A stretch of 64,000 nucleotides of DNA from Elusimicrobiota bacterium (lineage in GTDB: Bacteria; Elusimicrobiota; JBDRON01), in the NCBI GenBank assembly GCA_043810025.1, contig JBDRON010000056.1:19377-83376 (forward strand), written 5' to 3'. Both the position numbers and the translations under genes were made by a program. The notes under the pieces were generated by a model. The model saw only the letters and a program-made list of their open reading frames with translations. It did no database searches and was not told the DNA's origin. Positions 6,838-63,408 of this stretch are shown here, one piece after another. Within the stretch, counting starts at the first letter, position 1, and every line of letters begins with the position of its first letter.

Positions 6838-6865
6838 TAAAGGCTGGGGATCGTAAAAAGCGGAC

Positions 6866-6955
6866 AGGTCATGAGTCATGGGTTATGAGTTATGAGTTTA
6901 TAAAGAATAGAGTCTTTTAATCACAAGACACATGACTCATAACTTGTGACTTATT
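6866..6955. repeat. Family B long palindrome (tandem-heptamer arms + conserved AAAGAATAGAGTCTTTTAA centre), copy B1
   Basis: Arms GTCATGAGTCATGGGTTATGAGTTATGAG / CACAAGACACATGACTCATAACTTGTGAC; lies between nuoD and nuoH. Confidence 0.7.
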
Positions 6956-9028: not shown

Positions 9029-9063
9029 GTTAGTTGTAGGGAACGGTCGCGACCGTTCCGCAT
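9029..9063. repeat. Family D palindrome GTTAGTTGTAGGGAACGGTCGCGACCGTTCCGC, copy D1
   Basis: Perfect 20-bp palindrome GGAACGGTCGCGACCGTTCC directly after the nuoJ stop. Confidence 0.65.
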
Positions 9064-9393: not shown

Positions 9394-9410
9394 ATCAACC
9401 GTATAATATT

Positions 9411-9505
9411 GGTCGTGAGTCATGAGTCTTGGGTTATGAGCTTGAAAGGAATCGATTCTTTTAGACTCAAGACTCATAACGCATGACTCAGGACTTGTAA
9501 CTTGC
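9411..9505. repeat. Family B palindrome, copy B2
   Basis: GGTCGTGAGTCATGAGTCTTGGGTTATGAGCTTGAAAGGAATCGATTCTTTTAGACTCAAGACTCATAACGCATGACTCAGGACTTG; between nuoK and nuoL. Confidence 0.7.
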
Positions 9506-11513: not shown

Positions 11514-11572
11514 GTAGGGCAGGGCTTTAGCTCTGCGTTTTTTAAAGATGCAAGCCTAAAGGCTTGCCCTAC
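11514..11572. repeat. Family C nested-hairpin element (GTAG...CTAC bounded), copy C1
   Basis: GTAGGGCAGGGCTTTAGCTCTGCGTTTTTTAAAGATGCAAGCCTAAAGGCTTGCCCTAC; outer stem GTAGGGCA/TGCCCTAC enclosing two inner hairpins; between nuoL and nuoM. Confidence 0.65.
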
Positions 11573-14527: not shown

Positions 14528-14650
14528 AGGAAATTAGAAGTTTGTTGAAGTGTTCCCCCTTTTGAAAGGGGGATGAAGGGGGATTTTAAAATATTGATAA
14601 AATCTCCCCTACCCCTCTTTTTAAAGAGGGAAAAAAACGTCACAGGTGTG
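14528..14650 (+). repeat. Family A triple-hairpin REP-like element, copy A1
   Basis: GAAATTAGAAGTTTGTTGAAGTGTT-CCCCCTTTTGAAAGGGGG-ATGAAGGGGGATTTT...AAATCTCCCCTA-CCCCTCTTTTTAAAGAGGG-AAAAAAACGTCACAG; three consecutive stem-loops; immediately downstream of nuoN. Confidence 0.7.
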
Positions 14651-15684: not shown

Positions 15685-15770
15685 GGTCATGAGTTGTGGG
15701 TCGTGGGTTGTGAGCTTAAAAGAATCGAGTCTTTTAATCTCAAGACTCATGACTCATAACCCATGACTTA
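15685..15770. repeat. Family B palindrome, copy B3
   Basis: GGTCATGAGTTGTGGGTCGTGGGTTGTGAGCTTAAAAGAATCGAGTCTTTTAATCTCAAGACTCATGACTCATAACCCATGACTTA; upstream of bamA. Confidence 0.7.
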
Positions 15771-23180: not shown

Positions 23181-23265
23181 GTTAGTTGTAGGGAACGGTC
23201 GTGACCGTTCCGCTTTTGTCATGTAACAGAAATATAAGTTGTAGGGAAAGCATATCTGCGTTCCC
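23181..23265. repeat. Family D element, copy D2 (two GTTGTAGGGA units)
   Basis: GTTAGTTGTAGGGAACGGTCGTGACCGTTCCGC...GTTGTAGGGAAAGCATATCTGCGTTCCC; downstream of lpxI. Confidence 0.6.
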
Positions 23266-23287
23266 AGGTGAACCATAAAAATAGTCC

Positions 23288-23316
23288 TTGACAATACAAG
23301 TTATAACTTGTATACT
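23288..23316 (+). promoter_or_regulatory. sigma70-like promoter TTGACA-17-TATACT with a palindromic operator (CAAGTTATAACTTG) in the spacer, upstream of higB-like/higA-like
   Basis: Consensus -35 at 23288-93, 17-nt spacer that is itself a perfect 14-bp palindrome, -10 TATACT at 23311-16. Confidence 0.5.
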
Positions 23317-23340
23317 CTTATTAGAAATAAAGAGTAAAAG

Positions 23341-23688
23341 ATGCTGAAAAATATCTATTATTTTGTAGATGAACGGGGTGATAACCCGGTTAGAGAATTT
23401 ATAGATTCTTTGCCGATTAAAGAACGGGCAAAGATATTTGCTTACATTGAAGAATTAAGAAATCAGGGTCACAATTTGCGTAGGCCGATAGCGGATTATT
23501 TAGGTAACGATATTTATGAACTAAGACCTAAAAGCAATAGAATCTTTTATTTCTTCTTTTTAAAAGATAACGCGGTTTTGGTTCATGCCATAAAAAAGAA
23601 GACGGACAAAATTCCCAATGCCGATTTAAACTTAAGTATAAAAAGAAAAGGGTTGGTTGAGGAGTATGAACGAGTAGAAAAAATATAA
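23341..23688 (+). CDS. type II toxin, HigB-like / phage-related Gp49 (RelE/ParE superfamily)
   Basis: 115 aa, MLKNIYYFVDERGDNPVREFIDSLPIKERAKI...; followed 8 nt later by an XRE HTH gene (toxin-first HigBA arrangement). Confidence 0.68.
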   Translation: MLKNIYYFVDERGDNPVREFIDSLPIKERAKIFAYIEELRNQGHNLRRPIADYLGNDIYELRPKSNRIFYFFFLKDNAVLVHAIKKKTDKIPNADLNLSIKRKGLVEEYERVEKI

Positions 23689-23704
23689 TAGTGAGGTGAG
23701 CGGG

Positions 23705-24031
23705 ATGAAAAAAATTAAATTAGAAAAAATCGACGACCATTTAAACGCGGAATTAAAGAATGAAGAATTCAGAAGGAATTTTGAATTAGAAAGAGCTAAA
23801 GTATCGTTGGCTCAAAAAATAGCGGAGCTGAGACAGGATAAAAAACTGAAACAAATTGATCTCGCCAAGAAACTGCATGTTTCGCAGCAATTCATTTCCC
23901 TGATTGAAACTGCGCAAGAAAAGAATTTGACTCTGGAAACTTTAGTAAAAATTGCCAAGTCCTTGGGAAGAAGTGTCAAAATTTCTTTCCCCAAAGCCTC
24001 TGCCCAAGGTGCTCATCTCAAGATAGCATAA
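23705..24031 (+). CDS. HigA-like antitoxin, XRE-family HTH DNA-binding protein
   Basis: HTH region LRQDKKLKQIDLAKKLHVSQQFISLIE; GAGGTG RBS before ATG 23705. Confidence 0.68.
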   Translation: MKKIKLEKIDDHLNAELKNEEFRRNFELERAKVSLAQKIAELRQDKKLKQIDLAKKLHVSQQFISLIETAQEKNLTLETLVKIAKSLGRSVKISFPKASAQGAHLKIA

Positions 24032-24119
24032 TTTGTTTGAATACAAAGTAACAGATAAAAAAATACAGCCGACTAATTTTAGTTTAATTCCCTAGTTTAA
24101 GAATATAAGTAAGTTTAAT

Positions 24120-24593
24120 ATGAGTGAAGAAGAAAAATACGAGTACGATAGTAATATTTTGTCAATAAAGTATACAAAAATTACTGATACGATACCTGTT
24201 TCTGGTGCGAATACATCTACCAGTATATTTTGGGATCAAACAGAAATGCCTGATGCCGGAGTTCTTAAATTTTTAGAACCTTGTGGTCGGAATTGGAGAT
24301 TCGGAAAACTGGAAAATGAAATGAAGTATGTAGCGAGGGTGCACCACAAATTAAAATCAAATTCTAAAGGTAATTTCTATACTTTAATATGGAGTTGGAA
24401 AGATATTCATCAAGTAAAGGAGTGGCTTGAATTAGACGGTGTTGCAATAGACTTAAAAACAAAATTTGTTATTAGGCCAGGATGTTTAATCGCAATTGGG
24501 AATTTTAAGAAAAACAATAATCATCAAATTTATGTAAAAGAAAAAGAGGAATTTGTTCTTGAAATTACAGAAAGTACTACTAATATAGAATGA
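24120..24593 (+). CDS. hypothetical protein (ORF A of AT-rich island), translationally coupled to the next gene
   Basis: 157-aa ORF in a markedly AT-rich segment; 4-bp overlap (ATGA) with the downstream ORF; no recognisable motif. Confidence 0.5.
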   Translation: MSEEEKYEYDSNILSIKYTKITDTIPVSGANTSTSIFWDQTEMPDAGVLKFLEPCGRNWRFGKLENEMKYVARVHHKLKSNSKGNFYTLIWSWKDIHQVKEWLELDGVAIDLKTKFVIRPGCLIAIGNFKKNNNHQIYVKEKEEFVLEITESTTNIE

Positions 24594-25666
24594 AAACTTC
24601 TCCGATAAAACAATTACCAAACAATGACTATTTAATAAATCCTGGTGCTTCATTTGAAATGCATCTTTATAATACCGACATCAATACCGTAACCGAACTA
24701 GTTAATATTATGAAAAAAGGTGAGGAAGAAGGATCAGGAACTGGCGTTGTTAACTGTAAATTGTTGGAATTACTAGTAAAAAATAATGTTAGATGCCGTG
24801 AAATTGATTCTTATGTAAATGAATTTCGGCCACAATATATTCAAAATCTAAAAACATATTCTGGATTAAATGTTGACTGGCAGAGTATTAATGAAATTGA
24901 TATAAGTAGTATTCCAGAAGAAATCAGAAAAAAAGCAGTTGATGAGTTGCGCATAAAACCAGACACTAATATAGAGGTTTTGTTTAAACTTTATCCTTGT
25001 GATGATTCTGTGCCGATAGAAGTATTTAGGAAGTATCCCTTTAAAGTTATAGTAAAATATCTTAATGTTTGGGATCGGGGCAAAGAATTGAAAGTTATTC
25101 CTCTGGAACACCGAGATAGAAAAATTTACGAGAAAATGGTTGAATTGAATCTGTCTATGCAAGGGGAAGCAATTCCGCTTAAAGATATATTAGTGACTTT
25201 GAAATTATCTGAATTAAAGGAAATCGGTTTAAAGGTAAATACAGAGCCATCAAATAAGAAAGAAAAAGTTATTGAAAATTTACTGAGCAAAGAAGGTGTT
25301 GAAAAACAAATTCAAGGTAGTATTAATCTTAAAGACTATTTTAAACTTATTTCTATCGAACGAGAGTTTGGCTCCGATATATTCAGTAAATTAAATTCAT
25401 CCATTAAATATAATGAACTTAATGCAGACTTAATTGGGAGAACTTTTTTATTCTCTTATTACAATGATTCTAGGGATAATTCCTGGTCGAATCCAATATC
25501 TTCTGAACTAATCACAGGATATGAAATTTCAATGGTTTCCGATGCAAGATGTTGCCCTTACTGTAAAGATATGAAAGGAAAAAAGTTTGACAAAGTTAAT
25601 TGTCCTAAAATACCATTGCATTTGGCTTGTCGATGTGCGAAAGTCCCGCTAACAAAATATGGCTAA
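24590..25666 (+). CDS. hypothetical protein (ORF B) with SAP-like helix-extended-helix motif and C-terminal Mu-F/SPP1-gp7-like zinc-ribbon motif (CxYC...PLHxxCRC)
   Basis: 358 aa; LKDILVTLKLSELKEIGLKVNT...KKEKVIENLLSK resembles a SAP DNA-binding motif; C-terminus CCPYCKDMKGKKFDKVNCPKIPLHLACRCAKVPL resembles the conserved end of phage head-morphogenesis (Mu F) domains. Confidence 0.5.
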   Translation: MKTSPIKQLPNNDYLINPGASFEMHLYNTDINTVTELVNIMKKGEEEGSGTGVVNCKLLELLVKNNVRCREIDSYVNEFRPQYIQNLKTYSGLNVDWQSINEIDISSIPEEIRKKAVDELRIKPDTNIEVLFKLYPCDDSVPIEVFRKYPFKVIVKYLNVWDRGKELKVIPLEHRDRKIYEKMVELNLSMQGEAIPLKDILVTLKLSELKEIGLKVNTEPSNKKEKVIENLLSKEGVEKQIQGSINLKDYFKLISIEREFGSDIFSKLNSSIKYNELNADLIGRTFLFSYYNDSRDNSWSNPISSELITGYEISMVSDARCCPYCKDMKGKKFDKVNCPKIPLHLACRCAKVPLTKYG

Positions 25667-25702
25667 AGTATTTGAATAAAACACTGTATTAGGGGATTAA
25701 AT

Positions 25703-26155
25703 ATGTCGGGATCATTTTTATACATTGGAATTCATTTTATTTTTAGTACAAAAAATCGTGTGAACATAATTACTAGCGAAATAAAAGATAGGTTGTATTC
25801 CTATATTGGCGGAATAATAAAATCAATTAAAGGTATACCAATTGCTATAAATGGAATGCCTGATCATATCCATGTTTTTTGTATTGTATCACGGGAAATG
25901 ACCATTGCTGATTTTATGCGTATTGTTAAATCAAATTCATCAAAATGGTTGAATGAAACTTTTCCTGTTAAGCCAAAATTCCAATGGCAAGACGGATACG
26001 GTTCGTTTTCAGTCACTAAATCATCAGAAAATAAAATCATTGAATATGTAAAAAATCAAGAAGAACATCATAAACAAAAATCATTTCAGGATGAATTTAT
26101 TGAATATTTAAGATTGATGAAAATTGACTATGATGAAAGATATATATGGCAATAA
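25703..26155 (+). mobile_element. tnpA: IS200/IS605-family Y1 HUH transposase (TnpA) / REP-associated tyrosine transposase (RAYT)-like, solitary
   Basis: 150 aa; HUH motif MPDHIHVFCIV; C-terminal catalytic Tyr in EYVKNQEEHH (Y-x-x-NQ motif of IS200 TnpA/RAYT); no tnpB partner. Confidence 0.75.
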
Positions 26156-26400
26156 TACTCCGCCGCCCCGTTGGGGCTTATATTTTCATGGGTGATTATA
26201 GCGGGGATTACATCCCCGCCTATAATCCGCAATCCCTTCGGGATAATAAATTGAAAAAGATTGTAGTATGCTTTTATTTGTCCTGAAAGGACAACGGAAT
26301 ATAGGCGGGGGGCTTGCCCCCCGAAAATGAAATATTCCATGAACGATAAGCCCTGAAAGGGCGGAGGAAAAGCGCCCAAATTATTTATAAATTTTCAGTG
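26156..26400 (+). other. structured GC-rich hairpin cluster downstream of tnpA (possible IS end / REP-like hairpins / small RNA)
   Basis: Hairpins TATAGCGGGGATTACATCCCCGCCTATA (26195-26225), GTCCTGAAAGGAC, GGCGGGGGGCTTGCCCCCCG (about 26300-26322), GCCCTGAAAGGGC; the outer complement CTCCGCCGCCCC...GGGCGGAG frames the region. Confidence 0.45.
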
Positions 26401-26592
26401 TAATAAAAAGAGGTAAGCTATGGATTTCAAAATTTTATCTACTCACTCGTGGGGCGGAGATTTGACAGAAAAAAATTATTGGCCTAGAATCGGGGGAAAG
26501 TTTCCCTATTACGAAATTATCTGGTCGAAGGTTATAGCGCTCTTAACAAAGAGATCAGACAATTTACTTTTGGTTTAAAAAGGGGGGGTGTT

Positions 26593-27498
26593 ATGAAAAA
26601 TTTTTTTGAGAAAAATAAAATATTCTTGGGTATAATTATAGCCGGTTTGATGATTGCCGCAGCTATTTATTTTGGTTTAAATAAGCCGGCTGATAAAGAA
26701 AAATATTTATCATTATCGTCCTCGCCGTCTCCTGCCCAAAGTTTGGCGCCGGCTGAGGCTCTTGTCACTAAAGTTATCGATGGTGATACGATAATTGTTG
26801 AAGGCGGTTATAATGTCCGGCTTTTGGGTATTGATGCTGATGAGGCGGGTTATCCCTGTTACGAAGCAGCCAAAAAACGCTTAGAAGAATTGATTTTAAA
26901 TAAAACGGTGAGATTGGAAAAAGACCAAACCGATGTTGACCAATATAAAAGATATTTGAGGTATATTTTTCTTGACGACAAAAATATATGTTTAGAGTTG
27001 GTAAAAGAAGGCTTGGCAATTGCCAGATTTTATGAGCCGGATAGAAAATACAAAAACGAGATTGTTTCCGGCGAAAAAGAAGCGATTGAGAAAAAAGTTG
27101 GTTGCAAATGGTCCGCTTCCACCAATGTTTCGGCGGATAAATTATCTTACGAAAAAAACGAATTCTCCTATGAGAAATTAACCACGGGGAAGACCGGTTT
27201 AAAAGTAGTTGGCGCTTACCAATCAGGGAATTATTACGGAAGAGAAGTCATTGTGGAAGGAAAAGTAGTTGGCGCTTATCGCTCAAAAACAAATATAGTT
27301 TTCTTAAATTTTGATAAAACCTATCCCAATCAATATTTTGTCGGAGTTATTTTTAGTTCAGACCAGTATAAGTTTGTTGAGGCGCCGGAAAAATATTATG
27401 CGGGAAAAACCGTTAGAATCAAAGGAAAAATTAAGGAGTATCGCGGCAAACCGGAAATTATTATAAAAGACCCTTCCCAGATTGAGATAGGAAAATAA
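26593..27498 (+). CDS. membrane-anchored thermonuclease (SNase-like) with C-terminal OB-fold domain
   Basis: N-terminal TM; SNase core VIDGDTIIVEGGYNVRLLGIDADE...RYLRYIFLDDKN...; C-terminal OB-fold-like repeat (KVVGAY...KGKIKEYRGKPEIIIKD). Confidence 0.72.
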   Translation: MKNFFEKNKIFLGIIIAGLMIAAAIYFGLNKPADKEKYLSLSSSPSPAQSLAPAEALVTKVIDGDTIIVEGGYNVRLLGIDADEAGYPCYEAAKKRLEELILNKTVRLEKDQTDVDQYKRYLRYIFLDDKNICLELVKEGLAIARFYEPDRKYKNEIVSGEKEAIEKKVGCKWSASTNVSADKLSYEKNEFSYEKLTTGKTGLKVVGAYQSGNYYGREVIVEGKVVGAYRSKTNIVFLNFDKTYPNQYFVGVIFSSDQYKFVEAPEKYYAGKTVRIKGKIKEYRGKPEIIIKDPSQIEIGK

Positions 27499-27735
27499 AC
27501 TCATATATGCAAAGTCAAAATAAAAAAGGGAAAAATCTTTTTACAGTATCAAAAATTAGAGGGTATTGATTGGTTATGAAACTCACTAAAAAAGATTCAG
27601 AGACAATTTGTGATGTTTTTTTGTTTTCTGGTAAATATGATCTTATGGATGGAAATTGATAATGAGTAAAGAGACAATAGAAAAGCTCACAAATACAATT
27701 GCTCAAAATACCGAACCTAAAATTCAGCCGCGTAT

Positions 27736-27764
27736 TGTATATAACTGCGCATAATTAAAGGGAC
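27736..27764. repeat. left arm of a 29-bp perfect inverted repeat (TATATAACTGCGCATAATTAAAGGGACAT)
   Basis: Exact reverse complement found at 27958-27986; the pair flanks a 193-bp segment containing Family A copy A3. Confidence 0.8.
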
Positions 27765-27817
27765 ATCAGCAAAAGTGTCATAGCAACGAAAGCTGGTATC
27801 CAGAAAGTGTGATATAC

Positions 27818-27957
27818 AGAAATTTGAATGTTTGTTTTGCGTATATTCCCCCTTAAAAAAGGGGGACACAGGGGGATTTTGAAAATTAGAAATATTGTCT
27901 AAATCTCCCCTACCCCTCTTTTTAAAAGAGGGGAAAAAATACCACAGAACGAAACTC
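27818..27957 (+). repeat. Family A triple-hairpin element, copy A3 (inside the 29-bp IR pair)
   Basis: GAAATTTGAATGTTTGTTTTGCGTATATT-CCCCCTTAAAAAAGGGGG-ACACAGGGGGATTTTGAAAATTAGAAATATTGTCTAAATCTCCCCTA-CCCCTCTTTTTAAAAGAGGGG-AAAAAATACCACAG. Confidence 0.7.
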
Positions 27958-27986
27958 ATGTCCCTTTAATTATGCGCAGTTATATA
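27958..27986. repeat. right arm of the 29-bp perfect inverted repeat; contains the start codon of the downstream wHTH gene
   Basis: ATGTCCCTTTAATTATGCGCAGTTATATA; ATG 27972 (MRSYIVEK...) lies inside it. Confidence 0.8.
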
Positions 27987-28196
27987 GTCGAAAAAATAGA
28001 GGATAAAAACATAATTGTAGTTGATGTAAATGAATCTATTTATTTAAGAGAACATAAAGAAATAACTAGAAATGAATGTATGGAATTATTGAATTTAACG
28101 AGAGATATTGCAATTAGAGAACTTTTATCGTTGAAGAGAAAGGGAATTATTAAACAAATTGGTAAAGGGAAGAACATTTATTATGTACTTGTCTAA
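27972..28196 (+). CDS. small winged-helix DNA-binding protein (possibly a gene fragment)
   Basis: 74 aa; ...ITRNECMELLNLTRDIAIRELLSLKRKGIIKQIGKGKNIYYVL resembles C-terminal wHTH domains of Fic/AAA-type regulators; the start is embedded in the inverted repeat. Confidence 0.4.
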   Translation: MRSYIVEKIEDKNIIVVDVNESIYLREHKEITRNECMELLNLTRDIAIRELLSLKRKGIIKQIGKGKNIYYVLV

Positions 28197-28256
28197 CGAA
28201 AATGCGACGAATCCGATTCGTCTCAGGCGGATTGATTTTTGGTTTTGCGGAGTGAT

Positions 28257-29237
28257 ATGGCTAAAATAAAAGTTGCGGTTGTTGGGGTGGGGCATTTGGG
28301 GCAGCATCATGCGCGGGTTTATTCCCAGTTGCCGGAAGCGGAATTGGCGGCGGTGGTGGATAACGATTTTTCTGCGGCGCAGAAGTTTGGGAAAAAATTT
28401 GGCTGTGCGGCTTTGGCGGATTACCGGCAAATTTTGGGCAAAGTTGAGGCGGTTTCGCTGGTCGTGCCTACCCCGCTGCATTTTTCCATCGGCAAAGATT
28501 TGCTTTCTGCCGGTCTGCATGTTTTAATCGAAAAACCACTGGCTTCCTCTTTGGAAGAAGCGGAAGAATTAATTGCCTTGGCTCAGCAAAAAAACTCCAT
28601 ACTGCAAGTCGGGCATATCGAACGGTTTAACAGCGGCCTGGTAGAAACGCAAAAGTATATCAGCCGGCCGCGGTTTATTGAAGCTAACCGGCTGGGGCCT
28701 TACGATCCCCGCACCGGTCATATCGGGGTGATCCTGGATTTGATGATTCACGATCTGGACATAGTTTTACAGTTGGTTAATTCCAAGATCGAAACAATCG
28801 AGGCGGATGCGGCGGCGGTTTTTTCCGGCCACGAGGATATCGCCAAAGTGCGTTTAAGGTTTGCCAACGGTTGTATCGCCGATTTATCGGCAAGCCGGAT
28901 TTCTCTGGAAAAATTTCGTAAAATAAGAATTTTTCAGCCGGAGAGTTATATTTCGCTGGATTATATCCGTCAGGAGCTGAAAATTTATCGCAAGAAAGAG
29001 TCGGTGGAGCAGGTTAAATCCCTGATGGACATTGAGGTTATCCGTCCAAAGTTAAAAAGCCAGGAACCTTTGCAGGAAGAGCTGAAACATTTTCTGGAAT
29101 GCGTCCGAACCGGTAAAACCCCGCTGGTCACCGGCGAACACGGCCGCGGCGCCCTGGAGCTGGCTTTGGAAATTTTAAAGAAAACAAAAGTACAAGTAGT
29201 AAATAGTCCACAGTCCACGGTCCACAGTCCACACTAA
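28257..29237 (+). CDS. Gfo/Idh/MocA-family NAD(P)-dependent oxidoreductase (possible UDP-GlcNAc 3-dehydrogenase GnnA-like, lipid A associated)
   Basis: Rossmann N-terminus MAKIKVAVVGVGHLGQHHARVY; immediately upstream of lpxB-msbA; the last 11 codons (NSPQSTVHSPH) are encoded by a GTCCACA heptamer-repeat arm. Confidence 0.75.
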   Translation: MAKIKVAVVGVGHLGQHHARVYSQLPEAELAAVVDNDFSAAQKFGKKFGCAALADYRQILGKVEAVSLVVPTPLHFSIGKDLLSAGLHVLIEKPLASSLEEAEELIALAQQKNSILQVGHIERFNSGLVETQKYISRPRFIEANRLGPYDPRTGHIGVILDLMIHDLDIVLQLVNSKIETIEADAAAVFSGHEDIAKVRLRFANGCIADLSASRISLEKFRKIRIFQPESYISLDYIRQELKIYRKKESVEQVKSLMDIEVIRPKLKSQEPLQEELKHFLECVRTGKTPLVTGEHGRGALELALEILKKTKVQVVNSPQSTVHSPH

Positions 29238-29290
29238 TAACAGCTCCTTTTATTTTTATTCTGTGGTCAGTGGACTGTCGACTGTGGACG
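29217..29290. repeat. heptamer-arm palindrome (GTCCACA x4 ... TGTGGAC x2) at the oxidoreductase 3' end
   Basis: GTCCACAGTCCACGGTCCACAGTCCACAC-TAATAACAGCTCCTTTTATTTTTATTC-TGTGGTCAGTGGACTGTCGACTGTGGAC; same architecture as Family B with a different centre. Confidence 0.65.
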
Positions 29291-35236: not shown

Positions 35237-35400
35237 GAATTTAAGAAACACTTCAGCCAGGGGAAGTCCGTGGGAATCGGACACTGCCCCGCAACGGTGA
35301 TTCCTTCCGCCATCAGGCGGATTGGATAAGTCCGGTCTACTGTCTGAAGCATAAATCCTAAAAAGTGTTTTTAGGATTGCCTGCGCGGGCGGGATGGGTT
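35237..35400 (+). promoter_or_regulatory. cobalamin (AdoCbl) riboswitch
   Basis: B12-box-like core ...AGGGGAAGTCCGTGGGAATCGGACACTGCCCCGCAACGGTGA... (the conserved ...GCCACTG... region appears as CACTGCC); 5' UTR of the cobO-btuFCD-cobCUTS operon. Confidence 0.75.
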
Positions 35401-37378: not shown

Positions 37379-37459
37379 TAGCCATTTTTGTGGTAGCCGC
37401 AACCTTTAGGTGCGTTTCAAATTATGCGCAGGCTAAAGCCTGCGGCTACCAAGTGATAC

Positions 37460-37560
37460 TGATGTTATGTGTGTTCCCCTTTTAGAAAGGGGGATAAGGG
37501 GGATTTAGAAAATAATTACTAAATCTCCCCTAACCCCTCTTTATAAAAGAGGGGAATAAG
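37460..37560 (+). repeat. Family A triple-hairpin element, copy A4
   Basis: TGATGTTATGTGTGTT-CCCCTTTTAGAAAGGGGG-ATAAGGGGGATTTAGAAAATAATTACTAAATCTCCCCTAA-CCCCTCTTTATAAAAGAGGGG-AATAAG; between btuC and btuD. Confidence 0.7.
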
Positions 37561-37578
37561 AAATGAGGTGCCTAACTA

Positions 37579-39457: not shown

Positions 39458-40513
39458 ATGGAAAAAGTGGAAGAAATTGTAGTGAAAATTGCCGGGCTTG
39501 ATTCGGATCTGCTAAGGAGGACACAAGAAAGGTTGGATAATCTTACCAAGCCGCCGGGCAGTTTGGGAAGGCTGGAAGAGTTGGCCAGGATGATCGTCGG
39601 AATGACCGGAAAAGCTAACCCCTCTTTGGACAACAAGGTTATTTTTACCCTTGCTGCTGATCATGGAGCGGCGGAGGACGGGGTCAGCGCTTATCCCCGG
39701 GAAGTGACGGCTCAGATGGTTTATAATTTTTTAAATGGCGGGGCGGCGATCAATGTTTTGGCTAAGCATGCGGGGGCGAGGGTGGTGGTCGTGGATCTGG
39801 GAGTGGCCGTCGATTTAAAACCTCATCCGGAGTTAATGATTAAAAAAATAAATTATGGGACAAAAAACATGCGCCAGGGGCCGGCGATGAGCCGTGGGGA
39901 AGCGATAAAATCCATCGAAGCCGGGAAGGAAATTTTTCAGGTGGCGGCGGAGAAAGGGATTGATATCGCCGGGACCGGAGATATGGGCATTGGGAATACG
40001 ACGGCCAGCGCGGCTTTAACGGCTGTTTTTACCGGCCGGGCTGTGGAGGATGTTACCGGCCGCGGTACCGGCCTTGAGGATCAGGCTTTAAAAAACAAAG
40101 TTGCCTTTATTGCTGAGGCGATAGGCTTAAACAAGCCGGATAAAAACGATCCGTTGGATGTGCTGGCTAAACTGGGCGGGTTTGAGATCGGGGGGTTGGC
40201 CGGAATAATTTTGGCGGCTGCTTCCCGAAGGGTGCCGGTGGTGATTGATGGTTTTATTTCCGGGACGGCGGCTTTGCTGGCTTATCAGCTAGAGCCAAAA
40301 GTTAAGGATTATCTGATCGCTTCGCATTGTTCGGTAGAAAAGGGGCATAAAATAATTCTTGATTTTATTGGTTTAAAACCGTTTTTGGATTTGAATTTAA
40401 GGTTAGGCGAAGGAACGGGAGCGGCCTTGGGCATCAGTCTGGCCGAAGCTAGTATAAAAATATTAACCCAAATGGCCACCTTTGCCAAAGCCGGAGTTTC
40501 CACAAAAAAGTAG
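39458..40513 (+). CDS. cobT: nicotinate-nucleotide--dimethylbenzimidazole phosphoribosyltransferase
   Basis: CobT family (KPPGSLGRLEELA..., GIGNTTASAAL, ...ALGISLAEASIKIL); AAGGAG RBS before ATG 39458 (track start 39374 is an over-extension). Confidence 0.88.
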   Translation: MEKVEEIVVKIAGLDSDLLRRTQERLDNLTKPPGSLGRLEELARMIVGMTGKANPSLDNKVIFTLAADHGAAEDGVSAYPREVTAQMVYNFLNGGAAINVLAKHAGARVVVVDLGVAVDLKPHPELMIKKINYGTKNMRQGPAMSRGEAIKSIEAGKEIFQVAAEKGIDIAGTGDMGIGNTTASAALTAVFTGRAVEDVTGRGTGLEDQALKNKVAFIAEAIGLNKPDKNDPLDVLAKLGGFEIGGLAGIILAAASRRVPVVIDGFISGTAALLAYQLEPKVKDYLIASHCSVEKGHKIILDFIGLKPFLDLNLRLGEGTGAALGISLAEASIKILTQMATFAKAGVSTKK

Positions 40514-40516
40514 TAG

Positions 40517-40590
40517 TTGTGGGTCATGGGTCTTGAGCTCAAAAGACTCGATTCCTTTAAAATCACAACCCATGACACACAACTCAGAAC
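40517..40590. repeat. Family B palindrome, copy B5
   Basis: TTGTGGGTCATGGGTCTTGAGCTCAAAAGACTCGATTCCTTTAAAATCACAACCCATGACACACAACTCAGAAC; between cobT and cobS. Confidence 0.7.
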
Positions 40591-40616
40591 CATTACTTTA
40601 GGGAGCTTGTTTTATC

Positions 40617-43347: not shown

Positions 43348-43462
43348 TTTTGGGGGATCAGTTGTATTAAAATGTCCCCCTTTGATAAAGGGGGATTAAG
43401 GGGGTTGGGTTTTATATTTTTAAACTCCCCTAACCCCTCTTTAATAAAGAGGGGAATTAAAG
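43340..43462 (+). repeat. Family A triple-hairpin element, copy A5
   Basis: GAATTGATTTTGGGGGATCAGTTGTATTAAAATGT-CCCCCTTTGATAAAGGGGG-ATTAAGGGGGTTGGGTTTTATATTTTTAAACTCCCCTAA-CCCCTCTTTAATAAAGAGGGG-AATTAAAG. Confidence 0.7.
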
Positions 43463-43479
43463 CTCCGATAAATAAAAAT

Positions 43480-47204: not shown

Positions 47205-47340
47205 ATTTCCTTCTTCTTTTGTTCCCCTCTTTTATAAAGAGGGGTTAGGGGAGATTTGGTAATTATTATTGTCTAAATCCCCCTTATCCCCCTTTAAAAA
47301 AGGGGGAAATTAGATTTTTGCTACACATTGAATTTCCTTA
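47205..47340 (-). repeat. Family A triple-hairpin element, copy A6 (reverse orientation)
   Basis: Reverse complement reads GGAAATTCAATGTGTAGCAAAAATCTAATTT-CCCCCTTTTTTAAAGGGGG-ATAAGGGGGATTTAGACAATAATAATTACCAAATCTCCCCTAA-CCCCTCTTTATAAAAGAGGGG-AACAAAAG. Confidence 0.7.
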
Positions 47341-52023: not shown

Positions 52024-52082
52024 TGTAGGGCAAGCCTTTAGGCTTGCGTTTCTAAAACCGCAGGGCTAAAGCCCTGCCCTAC
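52024..52082. repeat. Family C nested-hairpin element, copy C2 (approximately the reverse complement of C1)
   Basis: GTAGGGCAAGCCTTTAGGCTTGCGTTTCTAAAACCGCAGGGCTAAAGCCCTGCCCTAC. Confidence 0.65.
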
Positions 52083-60408: not shown

Positions 60409-60535
60409 GAATTCCCTTCCCCTTAAGGCTGGGTTTCCCCCTTTTTAAAGGGGGATCAAGGGGGATTTTACGACGATAAAAATCCTCCCTAACCCTCCTT
60501 TACAAAGGAGGGAATAACTAAAAAAACCGCGTTTT
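60408..60535 (+). repeat. Family A triple-hairpin element, copy A7 (compensatory stem-3 variant)
   Basis: ...TTT-CCCCCTTTTTAAAGGGGG-ATCAAGGGGGATTTTACGACGATAAAAATCCTCCCTAA-CCCTCCTTTACAAAGGAGGG-AATAACT; stem 3 reads CCCTCCTTT/AAAGGAGGG here versus CCCCTCTTT/AAAGAGGGG elsewhere. Confidence 0.7.
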
Positions 60536-63310: not shown

Positions 63311-63408
63311 AGTCGTAGTCTTGAGCCATGGGTCTTGAGTCTTGAGTCTTGAGTTTAAAAGAATCGATTCCTTTAAACTCAGAACCCATGACACATAACG
63401 CATGACCC
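63311..63408. repeat. Family B palindrome, copy B6
   Basis: GTCGTAGTCTTGAGCCATGGGTCTTGAGTCTTGAGTCTTGAGTTTAAAAGAATCGATTCCTTTAAACTCAGAACCCATGACACATAACGCATGACC; between the HK stop and the RR start within a minus-strand operon. Confidence 0.7.

Follow-up and report, generated by a model that had tools for sequence, protein, structure and literature searches.

The window analysed here, a stretch of 64,000 nucleotides from a contig of an Elusimicrobiota bacterium, harbours a solitary gene for a Y1 transposase of the HUH type which is followed by a cluster of GC-rich hairpins. Gene and hairpins probably constitute a system resembling the REPtrons, i.e. the combination of repetitive extragenic palindromes (REPs) with REP-associated tyrosine transposases (RAYTs): an enzyme of TnpAY1 subclass 1.2 which no longer behaves as part of an insertion sequence (IS), accompanied by cognate DNA hairpin modules downstream of its gene. 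These modules resemble Acido-Lenti-1, a motif filed in Rfam as a small RNA (sRNA). On balance, we favour the view that Acido-Lenti-1 is not an RNA gene but the single-stranded DNA substrate of subclass-1.2 enzymes, which would make up a second REP/RAYT-like system, of IS200 (class 1) origin and present in at least eight phyla. The grammar of this second system would consist of two-hairpin modules whose hairpin B has an invariant C-T at its foot, a near-universal hairpin of the GCCCTGAAAGGGC type and a gene placed between inverted half-modules. We liken the system to a REPtron because the Y1 gene is present as a single copy, the flanking hairpins are inverted, and both gene-less inverted doublets and arrays of the modules occur.

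The enzyme is encoded by the following gene:

25703–26155, forward strand: TnpAY1 subclass-1.2 gene for a putative HUH/Y1 single-strand DNA endonuclease-ligase of 150 amino acids, assigned from motifs, homologue alignment and predicted fold

The open reading frame (ORF) extends from an ATG to a TAA codon. A Shine-Dalgarno-like AGGGGA is located ahead of it (25692–25697), and two overlapping ORFs (24120–24593 and 24590–25666) precede it. As stated in an earlier note made on this DNA from its letters alone, the 150-residue product carries both the HUH and the tyrosine motif, and it is recognised by the Pfam model Y1_Tnp with 92.7 bits (E 2e-26). The HUH motif DHIH is formed by residues 54–57 (DHIHVF; H55/H57), while the tyrosine motif EYVKNQEEHH, whose portion YVKNQEEHH corresponds to residues 115–123, provides the catalytic Y115 together with Q119. 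In phmmer alignments both motifs coincide with the residues that serve catalysis in ISDra2 and IS608 TnpA. Within an alignment of 29 homologues H55, H57, Y115 and Q119 are invariant, as are W95 and Q96, which form the WQ motif, as well as H122 and H123. The conserved C-terminal tail (residues 124–150; SFQ.EF..L....I.YDE.Y.W) contributes the invariant residues E131, L136, Y147 and W149. The AlphaFold model calculated from this alignment has a predicted local distance difference test score (pLDDT) of 87. Submitted to Foldseek, it retrieves ISDra2 and IS608 TnpA first (E ~3e-9), while the E. coli RAYT 4er8 follows at rank 30 (E 9e-6), below TnpA chains of the IS200 family. No tnpB is present near the gene, whose neighbours encode a 358-residue protein and an SNase/OB protein, and no further HUH/Y1 gene was detected in the window, either by tblastn or by a regular expression and a family hidden Markov model applied to six-frame ORFs. 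On both points, lack of tnpB and single copy, the earlier note is thus borne out. The identical protein is found in one contig of the sequence collection, derived from an Elusimicrobiota metagenome-assembled genome (MAG).

That note had regarded the gene as a domesticated RAYT rather than an active IS200, a proposal which is supported in part. The protein passes the NCBIfam model transpos_IS200 (69.4 bits; cut-off 55) but not the RAYT model REP_Tyr_transpos (NF047646), with which it scores 21 bits (E 2.4e-4; cut-off 80). Its motif YVKNQ corresponds to Y---Q and not to the Y---NP of RAYTs, and the hairpins adjacent to the gene, none of which is located upstream, carry (T/C)AG or CT(A/G) in place of GT[AG]G. 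Since profile, tyrosine motif and hairpin foot all fail, and since the fold is nearer to that of ISDra2 and IS608 TnpA, we place the protein outside the RAYT family. The notion of a solitary Y1 enzyme which does not behave like an active IS200, in contrast, stands.

Judged by its sequence, the protein is a member of TnpAY1 subclass 1.2, a low-copy sister of IS200 TnpA. This subclass has been set apart from IS200 proper on the basis of the motifs DH[IV]H, WQ and YIKNQKEHH, a median length of 148 amino acids and a specific C-terminal tail; its members are mostly cyanobacterial or from Bacteroidetes and occur with a mean of 1.7 copies per genome and a mean identity of 36% (PMC6006769). All defining protein features are shared by the window protein, namely DH[IV]H, WQ and Y---Q--HH (consensus YIKNQKEHH), a length of 150 compared to ~148 residues and the conserved C-terminal tail of ~30 residues. 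Low copy number, absence of IS200 ends and divergent paralogues may be shared as well: the gene is single in the 64-kb window and has no upstream hairpin, and two paralogues within one MAG (L051, L060) are 53% identical. What differs is the setting: the window gene belongs to an Elusimicrobiota MAG and is hence a member of this described subclass in a new phylum, and its relatives, distributed over at least eight phyla, possess a structured inverted flanking module. Group 3 (“RAYT-like IS200”) of Bertels 2017 (PMC5581495), for which neither duplicates nor plasmid copies but abundant flanking 16-mers have been described, is probably the same family.

Could the gene simply belong to a plain IS200, active or recently dead, whose right-end hairpin lies downstream? 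The matches to Pfam Y1_Tnp and NCBIfam transpos_IS200 would agree with this, as would the fact that IS200/IS605 TnpAs are the nearest solved structures. With these enzymes (IS608, ISDra2) the window protein has in common the Y1_Tnp domain with HUH and Y---Q, the tyrosine being placed on the C-terminal helix, and by analogy a hairpin-recognising chemistry on single-stranded DNA may be expected for it. Yet the 36-nt spacer upstream of the gene is free of hairpins, and the flanks of its relatives are mirror-symmetric, with hairpins inverted rather than arranged as the same-strand left and right ends (LE/RE) of IS200. The gene is neither multi-copy in the window nor accompanied by tnpB, and its product shows the subclass-1.2 signature Y---Q--HH, with its extra HH, and the additional C-terminal tail. 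We therefore regard a plain IS200 as very improbable.

Within 215 bp 3' of the stop codon, six GC-rich hairpins are present. Those listed previously do exist, i.e. GCGGGGA..TCCCCGC (26201–26219), CGGGGGGCTTGCCCCCCG (26306–26323), GTCCTGAAAGGAC (26280–26292) and GCCCTGAAAGGGC (26350–26362), and two further ones, GCCCCGTTGGGGC (26165–26177) and TCCCTTCGGGA (26233–26243), have to be added. Folded as DNA, the region 26150–26420 reaches -50.1 kcal/mol compared to -30.9 ± 3.7 kcal/mol for shuffled sequences (z -5.2), with 0 of 200 shuffles being as good. The hairpins were analysed with two covariance models (CMs). R1, built from 26 seed sequences of Weinberg and 6 sequences from homologous loci, contains no window sequence and was searched against the window plus 83 loci (538 kb), window scores being given with E values per 64 kb and with filters switched off. 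R2 was built from R1 matches. A hand-written structural scanner had served only to determine orientation and distance and was replaced by the CMs because of its high background (41–64 matches per 543 kb in controls). The cluster comprises the following elements:

26156–26177, forward strand: gene-proximal half-module, consisting of the linker remnant TACTCCGCC and the small hairpin GCCCCGTTGGGGC; partial CM matches
26201–26245, forward strand: full module copy 1, Acido-Lenti-1-like; R1 22.0 bits, E 1.6e-4
26277–26324, reverse strand: full module copy 2, inverted; R1 22.1 bits, E 1.5e-4, R2 33.4 bits
26350–26371, reverse strand: distal half-module, inverted, with hairpin GCCCTGAAAGGGC followed by GGAGGA (26363–26368); partial CM match
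26159–26368, no strand assigned: whole inverted doublet (+half)(+full)(-full)(-half), recognised by arm complementarity

The gene-proximal half-module begins right after the stop codon, where relatives hold the same element, and aligns with CM positions 23–45 at 7.8 bits and with positions 27–45 at 10.1 bits. Copy 1 starts 46 nt past the stop codon, which is the canonical position within the family. It is composed of hairpin B (GCGGGGA-TTACA-TCCCCGC, 26201–26219), the linker CTATAATCCGCAA (26220–26232) and hairpin A (TCCC-TTC-GGGA, 26233–26243); with R2, whose training set includes it, copy 1 scores 37.1 bits. On the forward strand copy 2 reads hairpin A' (TTGTCC-TGAAA-GGACAA, 26278–26294), linker CGGAATATAGG (26295–26305) and hairpin B' (CGGGGGG-CTTG-CCCCCCG, 26306–26323). 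The distal half-module matches positions 24–45 with 12.5 bits (R1) and 16.3 bits (R2), and its counterpart in canonical loci is found just ahead of the tnpA start codon. The outer arms of the arrangement (26159–26181 and 26346–26368) are 78% complementary and the inner arms (26214–26246 and 26278–26310) 79%. As both pairs of arms are able to pair, the entire doublet represents a REPIN-like long palindrome composed of local hairpins. In the closest relative (L004, 75% identity) compensatory changes preserve the stems, e.g. GGGG/CCCC altered to GAGG/CCTC. The ORF located beyond the distal half-module (26420–26578), considered as a second tnpA remnant, shows no similarity in tblastn and PHROGs searches.

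An exhaustive profile search yielded 166 clusters of homologues at 50% identity (E <= 1e-30), and a genome scan at least 591 homologous loci; the phyla include Acidobacteriota, Bacteroidota, Planctomycetota, Verrucomicrobiota, Zixibacteria, Ignavibacteria, Calditrichota and Desulfobacterota. In the closest relatives (L001, L004, L005) similar hairpins adjoin the gene, in L001 and L005 on both sides and inverted with respect to each other. Most of the 83 loci tested show significant minus-strand matches between upstream and downstream flank at symmetric distances from the gene, with inverted repeats of, for instance, 113 nt (L039, E 7e-31) or 66 nt (L070, E 3e-30). On the coding strand, the upstream flank reads hairpin A' with a GAAA or GAAG loop, a linker of ~12 nt ending in (T/C)AG, hairpin B', a spacer, and then an A'-type hairpin with a truncated linker directly ahead of the ATG; the downstream flank is the reverse complement of this series. 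Two inverted half-modules thus bracket the ORF within 0–12 nt, and beyond them, at a distance of ~55 nt from the gene, each side carries a full module which faces outward. L001 and L206 display this canonical arrangement on both sides, as does L207, which possesses an extra inverted module. Exact matches to the 13-mer GCCCTGAAAGGGC or its complement occur 50 times in homologous loci of several phyla, the sense form mostly upstream of the homologues and the reverse complement mostly downstream, and not once in 120 control loci.

The CMs quantify this association. Among the best 150 matches of R1, 136 are located within 400 nt of a gene (64.6 kb) and 14 in the 435 kb of farther flank, which corresponds to a ~65-fold enrichment. 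Upstream of the gene 53 matches are on the minus and 12 on the plus strand, downstream 47 on the plus and 24 on the minus strand; the median gap to the gene amounts to 54 nt upstream and 55 nt downstream. R2 gives 166 matches at E <= 1e-3 in 488 kb (86 loci), and an outward-facing module is found with it in 55 of the 86 loci, in 30 of them on both sides. Neither model produced any match in 491 kb of unrelated metagenome DNA (80 loci). These control loci are chance matches to the 16-mer CCCCGCCTATAWTCSG, with which metagenomes had been scanned (80 loci listed, in 120 files); as a search for dispersed copies, the scan returned among the loci listed chance matches only, with no CM match and no tnpA. 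The suggestion of the earlier note that the downstream hairpins may be cognate elements of the enzyme is hence supported, as the module flanks homologues in many phyla at fixed distance and orientation.

Compared to this pattern the window lacks the upstream arm, while the downstream arm and an extra inverted arm remain. We considered a circular permutation, by which the order seen in the window would be the place where both flanks of the unit meet. It is enough, however, to assume that the upstream arm was lost or replaced, and the permutation is unneeded because an extra inverted downstream module is common in relatives (21–24 of ~70 downstream matches).

Several homologous loci deviate from the canonical layout by multiplication of the modules. 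Tandem arrays with fixed periods of 72 nt (L007, 2691–2952 and 3506–3771) or 107 nt (L008, 3508–3767) are observed, and in Desulfonema magnum (L062) arrays with a period of ~50 nt (384–870 and 2194–2974) accompany two gene copies which are 83% identical and 3 kb apart. The unit boundaries of such arrays may reveal joining sites. In two independent assemblies (L208, 3001–3453; L209, 325–777) a homologue of 49% identity is located in a type I restriction-modification operon, with hsdS on one side and hsdR on the other; here an array of five modules is present upstream only, and hsdR starts 13 nt past the stop codon. Loci of the Flavobacterium type (L009, L012 and others) contain, within 110 nt on either side of the gene, repeated half-modules formed by ATCCCGTTAGGGAT and a linker of ~12 nt ending in GGTAG, with no hairpin B, which suggests a minimal conserved unit composed of the small hairpin and the linker. 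Among the proteins, ~20 cluster representatives of 270–320 residues (P0121–P0134 and others) are tandem fusions containing two complete subclass-1.2 domains per chain, some of which have lost the catalytic tyrosine of the first domain (Y to H in P0121, Y to F in P0123). From their sequences, these fusions look like single-chain TnpA dimers.

With REPtrons (RAYT/TnpA-REP, class 2; E. coli YafM, PDB 4ER8) the arrangement has several traits in common: a single-copy HUH/Y1 gene, GC-rich hairpins in inverted orientation which in some genomes are multi-copy elsewhere, REPIN-like inverted doublets, and a conserved short motif at the foot of the hairpin, which is GTAG in REPs and here, read on the complementary strand, YAG. 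The differences concern the enzyme, which is a class 1 protein (Y---Q, IS200-like fold) failing the RAYT profile, the repeat, in which two hairpins joined by a 12-nt linker form the module in place of a single hairpin with a GT[AG]G foot, and the half-modules bracketing the ORF. The TIRYTs (terminal-inverted-repeat-associated Y1 transposases, as cited in PMC6006769; subclass 2.1) likewise are Y1 genes with inverted-repeat flanks instead of IS200-type ends; they encode class-2 proteins with helix-turn-helix C-terminal extensions and possess GGGG[AT][CG]A[CG] repeats and no hairpin modules.

Acido-Lenti-1 (RF01687) has been classed as a likely sRNA with covariation and with no gene association, the sole context given being an occasional proximity to group II introns in Lentisphaerae (Weinberg 2010, PMC2864571); a 2026 preprint states that “little is known about” it. 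In L006 and L076 both gene flanks pass the RF01687 gathering score, and passing copies are likewise present in L037, L079 and L016 (37.8–51 bits), the passing loci belonging to Acidobacteriota and Verrucomicrobiota. In the window both copies align end to end with R1 (~22 bits each, E ~1.5e-4) and exhibit the architecture of the motif, an 8-bp hairpin, a 12-nt linker starting with CUA and a 5-bp hairpin with a UUC loop; their sequences are divergent from the Rfam model. The Rfam seed itself comprises 89 copies, ~58 of them from Lentisphaera araneosa and 13 from Koribacter versatilis, many in arrays or doublets, and in the alignment of Weinberg 2010 (supplementary file 61) the dispersed Lentisphaera araneosa copies form doublets like that of the window. 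Such multi-copy, arrayed behaviour is REP-like.

All 13 base pairs of the module covary. Pairing is observed in 97.4% of the cells of the alignment compared to 68% in shuffles and 36–53% with the partners slid against each other, and 416 cells show double-sided changes. Wobble pairs are nearly absent, as G-T or T-G is found in 7 of 1754 pair cells (0.4%) and A-C or C-A in 31. Such a scarcity of wobble pairs would be expected of a structure under selection as DNA, or on both strands, rather than as RNA, and the excess of A-C over G-T hints at the strand complementary to the Rfam strand as the one which folds. Read on this strand, the module consists of hairpin A', linker, YAG and hairpin B', an order reminiscent of a REP and the GTAG at its foot.

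These data also bear on the possibility that the cluster acts as a structured RNA, be it an Acido-Lenti-1 sRNA or a 3' untranslated region of the tnpA mRNA that affects stability or expression. The classification as a likely sRNA with covariation by Rfam and Weinberg 2010 speaks for it, and so do the location of the cluster on the coding strand immediately behind the ORF and the predicted RNA fold of 26150–26420 (-103 kcal/mol, z -6.55). The modules, however, occur in both orientations around one gene, so that at most one copy can be sense in a given transcript; the frequency of G-U pairs derived above would be unusual for an RNA; the motif is tied to an enzyme family that processes single-stranded DNA; multi-copy tandem arrays with the 72-nt and 107-nt periods exist; and no terminator or promoter pattern stands out. 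We consider an RNA function unlikely, and the small structured RNA which the earlier note had offered as an alternative is disfavoured by the two orientations and the near absence of wobble pairs.

A number of observations weigh against our interpretation of gene and modules as a REPtron-like system. Copy 26279–26323 on the reverse strand, the only one in the window reported by the Rfam model, scores 17.2 bits (E 0.34) and thus stays below the RF01687 gathering score of 37. The modules of the window, two full and two half, are confined to the vicinity of the gene, neither R1 nor R2 detecting a dispersed copy in its 64 kb, and the upstream arm is missing both here and in L004. About one third of the homologous loci, mainly those of the Flavobacterium type, possess half-modules only or nothing detectable with R1 or R2. 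Covariation was assessed on alignments that had been fitted to the model. For subclass 1.2 “no” is listed under REP in PMC6006769, the REP search of its authors having required a GT[AG]G foot. Finally, the enzymatic activity of subclass-1.2 proteins, including binding, cleavage site and mobilisation, is what we infer by analogy with characterised relatives.

The true inverted repeats in the flanks could alternatively mean that the unit is an IS targeting palindromic doublets, i.e. that a tnpA unit was inserted into the centre of a REPIN-like palindrome whose halves, the split target, now form the flanks. Some IS families, such as ISPpu9, do insert specifically into REPs (PMC8450116), and the window protein is called an IS200 equivalog by NCBIfam (69.4 bits). 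The half-modules, however, directly abut start and stop codons (0–12 nt), leaving no room for separate IS ends. Gene-less doublets are of opposite topology, in that their full modules point towards one another at the centre, and are hence not empty insertion sites. In addition, paralogues within one genome are divergent (53% between L051 and L060; 36% on average, PMC6006769), and Bertels' Group 3, probably the same family, lacks duplicates and plasmid copies (PMC5581495). An insertion of this kind therefore appears distinctly improbable.

The REPtron-like reading concerns the modules next to the gene and has to be separated from the other repeats of the window. “Hundreds of palindromic repeats nearby”, as the earlier note put it, is an overstatement: a repeat search of the whole window finds 34 inverted pairs whose arms measure at least 14 nt, and the repeated elements number ~20, divided among three or four families of ~3–6 copies each. 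REPIN-like inverted doublets, made up of GTAGGG, a GC hairpin with a TTTAG loop and a closing CCTAC, are located at 11514–11572, 37393–37449 and 52025–52082, and single GTAGGG copies of the form GTAGGGAACGGTCG(C/T)GACCGTTCC at 9036–9059 and 23188–23211, one of them exactly at the left edge of a low-GC stretch. Long imperfect palindromes exist in about six copies (6864–6954, 9405–9496, 15686–15769, 29205–29289, 40509–40592 and 63311–63408) and consist of tandem heptamers of the GTCATGA, GTCTTGA or GTCCACA type around a AAAAGAATCGA core. Family A elements, ~90 nt in length with three consecutive hairpins and C5/G5 stems, are found at 14550–14637, 27846–27942, 37471–37563, 43377–43463, 47226–47316 and 60432–60521. 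The idea that such repeats are the source of the gene-adjacent hairpins was rejected, as the cluster occurs only once in the window, where blastn-short and pattern searches detect no other copy of any of its sub-hairpins.

A domesticated RAYT which acts on these dispersed palindromes, Family A or the GTAG...CTAC families, is likewise highly improbable. REPIN-like GTAGGG doublets do exist in the window, they and the modules share a “hairpin + CCTA” element with 7–15 bits in the CMs, and no other Y1 gene is present in the window. This likeness is, however, a loose one and the CM scores are at noise level. In a check of the gene flanks none of the Family A, C or D repeats, to which the earlier note had linked the enzyme, was encountered, and stems and loops differ from those of the gene-adjacent modules; Family A, to whose stems the earlier note had likened those of the cluster, is unrelated to the modules (at most ~10 bits with the CMs). 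The protein, moreover, fails the RAYT profile and lacks Y---NP, and a class-2 RAYT could lie elsewhere in the genome outside the window. Since the window contains no class-2 RAYT, the cognate enzyme of the GTAGGG elements, if there is any, must be sought elsewhere.

Ultimately, the proximal hairpins might be nothing but bidirectional intrinsic terminators between convergent or adjacent genes. Two of them, 26165–26177 on the forward and 26362–26350 on the reverse strand, indeed pass a simple terminator scan, the former as a weak candidate. Their stems of 5 bp and poor T-runs do not fit well, though, the same elements are also found upstream of start codons in relatives, and full modules, fixed geometry and sequence conservation across phyla would be left unexplained. 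As the sole role of the hairpins termination is extremely improbable; it may be a side role of the proximal ones.

Returning to the REPtron-like system, we propose a mechanism modelled on IS608 and ISDra2 TnpA and on E. coli TnpA-REP. A TnpA dimer would bind the hairpins in single-stranded DNA, for example in the lagging-strand template, and might cut adjacent to the C-T that is invariant at the hairpin-B foot or, alternatively, at the point where the half-module linker ends and with it the homology to the full module. Cleavage would link the 5' phosphate to Y115 as a 5'-phosphotyrosine, and the strands would subsequently be religated. In this manner modules or doublets could be moved or amplified while the gene would stay put and not proliferate.

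Regarding its surroundings, the Y1 gene is located within a low-GC stretch (~23200–28200; GC 0.31–0.36 compared to ~0.45 elsewhere) which looks horizontally acquired. This stretch also encodes a HigB/Gp49-like protein paired with a helix-turn-helix antitoxin (23341–24031), a 157-residue protein and the 358-residue protein mentioned above, whose Cys-rich C-terminus weakly matches minor head proteins of the phage Mu-F/SPP1-gp7 type (PHROG 2841, E 5e-6). The SNase+OB protein (26593–27498) matches the PADLOC candidate “SNc+LTD”. PADLOC and PHROGs searches reveal no conserved partner among the neighbouring genes, and as the genes next to the homologues vary from locus to locus, there is no indication of an operon partner. 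At gathering threshold, Rfam reports for the whole window only an AdoCbl (cobalamin) riboswitch at 35238–35379 on the forward strand (RF01482, 53.1 bits; gathering score 50), Acido-Lenti-1 appearing only below threshold.

In the searchable literature, which omits most subscription journals, we did not find the link between gene and module stated. It assigns a testable function to two orphans, a widespread Y1/HUH subclass which had been described as lacking both IS and REP properties and an Rfam motif which has been orphaned since 2010. If our interpretation is correct, REP-like domestication of IS200-family enzymes took place on both branches or before their split, which would bear on the question raised by Bertels whether RAYTs were domesticated only once. 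Acido-Lenti-1 matches in genome annotations would then denote DNA repeats instead of sRNA genes, and the conserved small hairpin together with the 150-residue enzyme would form a compact nick-and-join pair for single-stranded DNA, a candidate for an HUH tag or tool.

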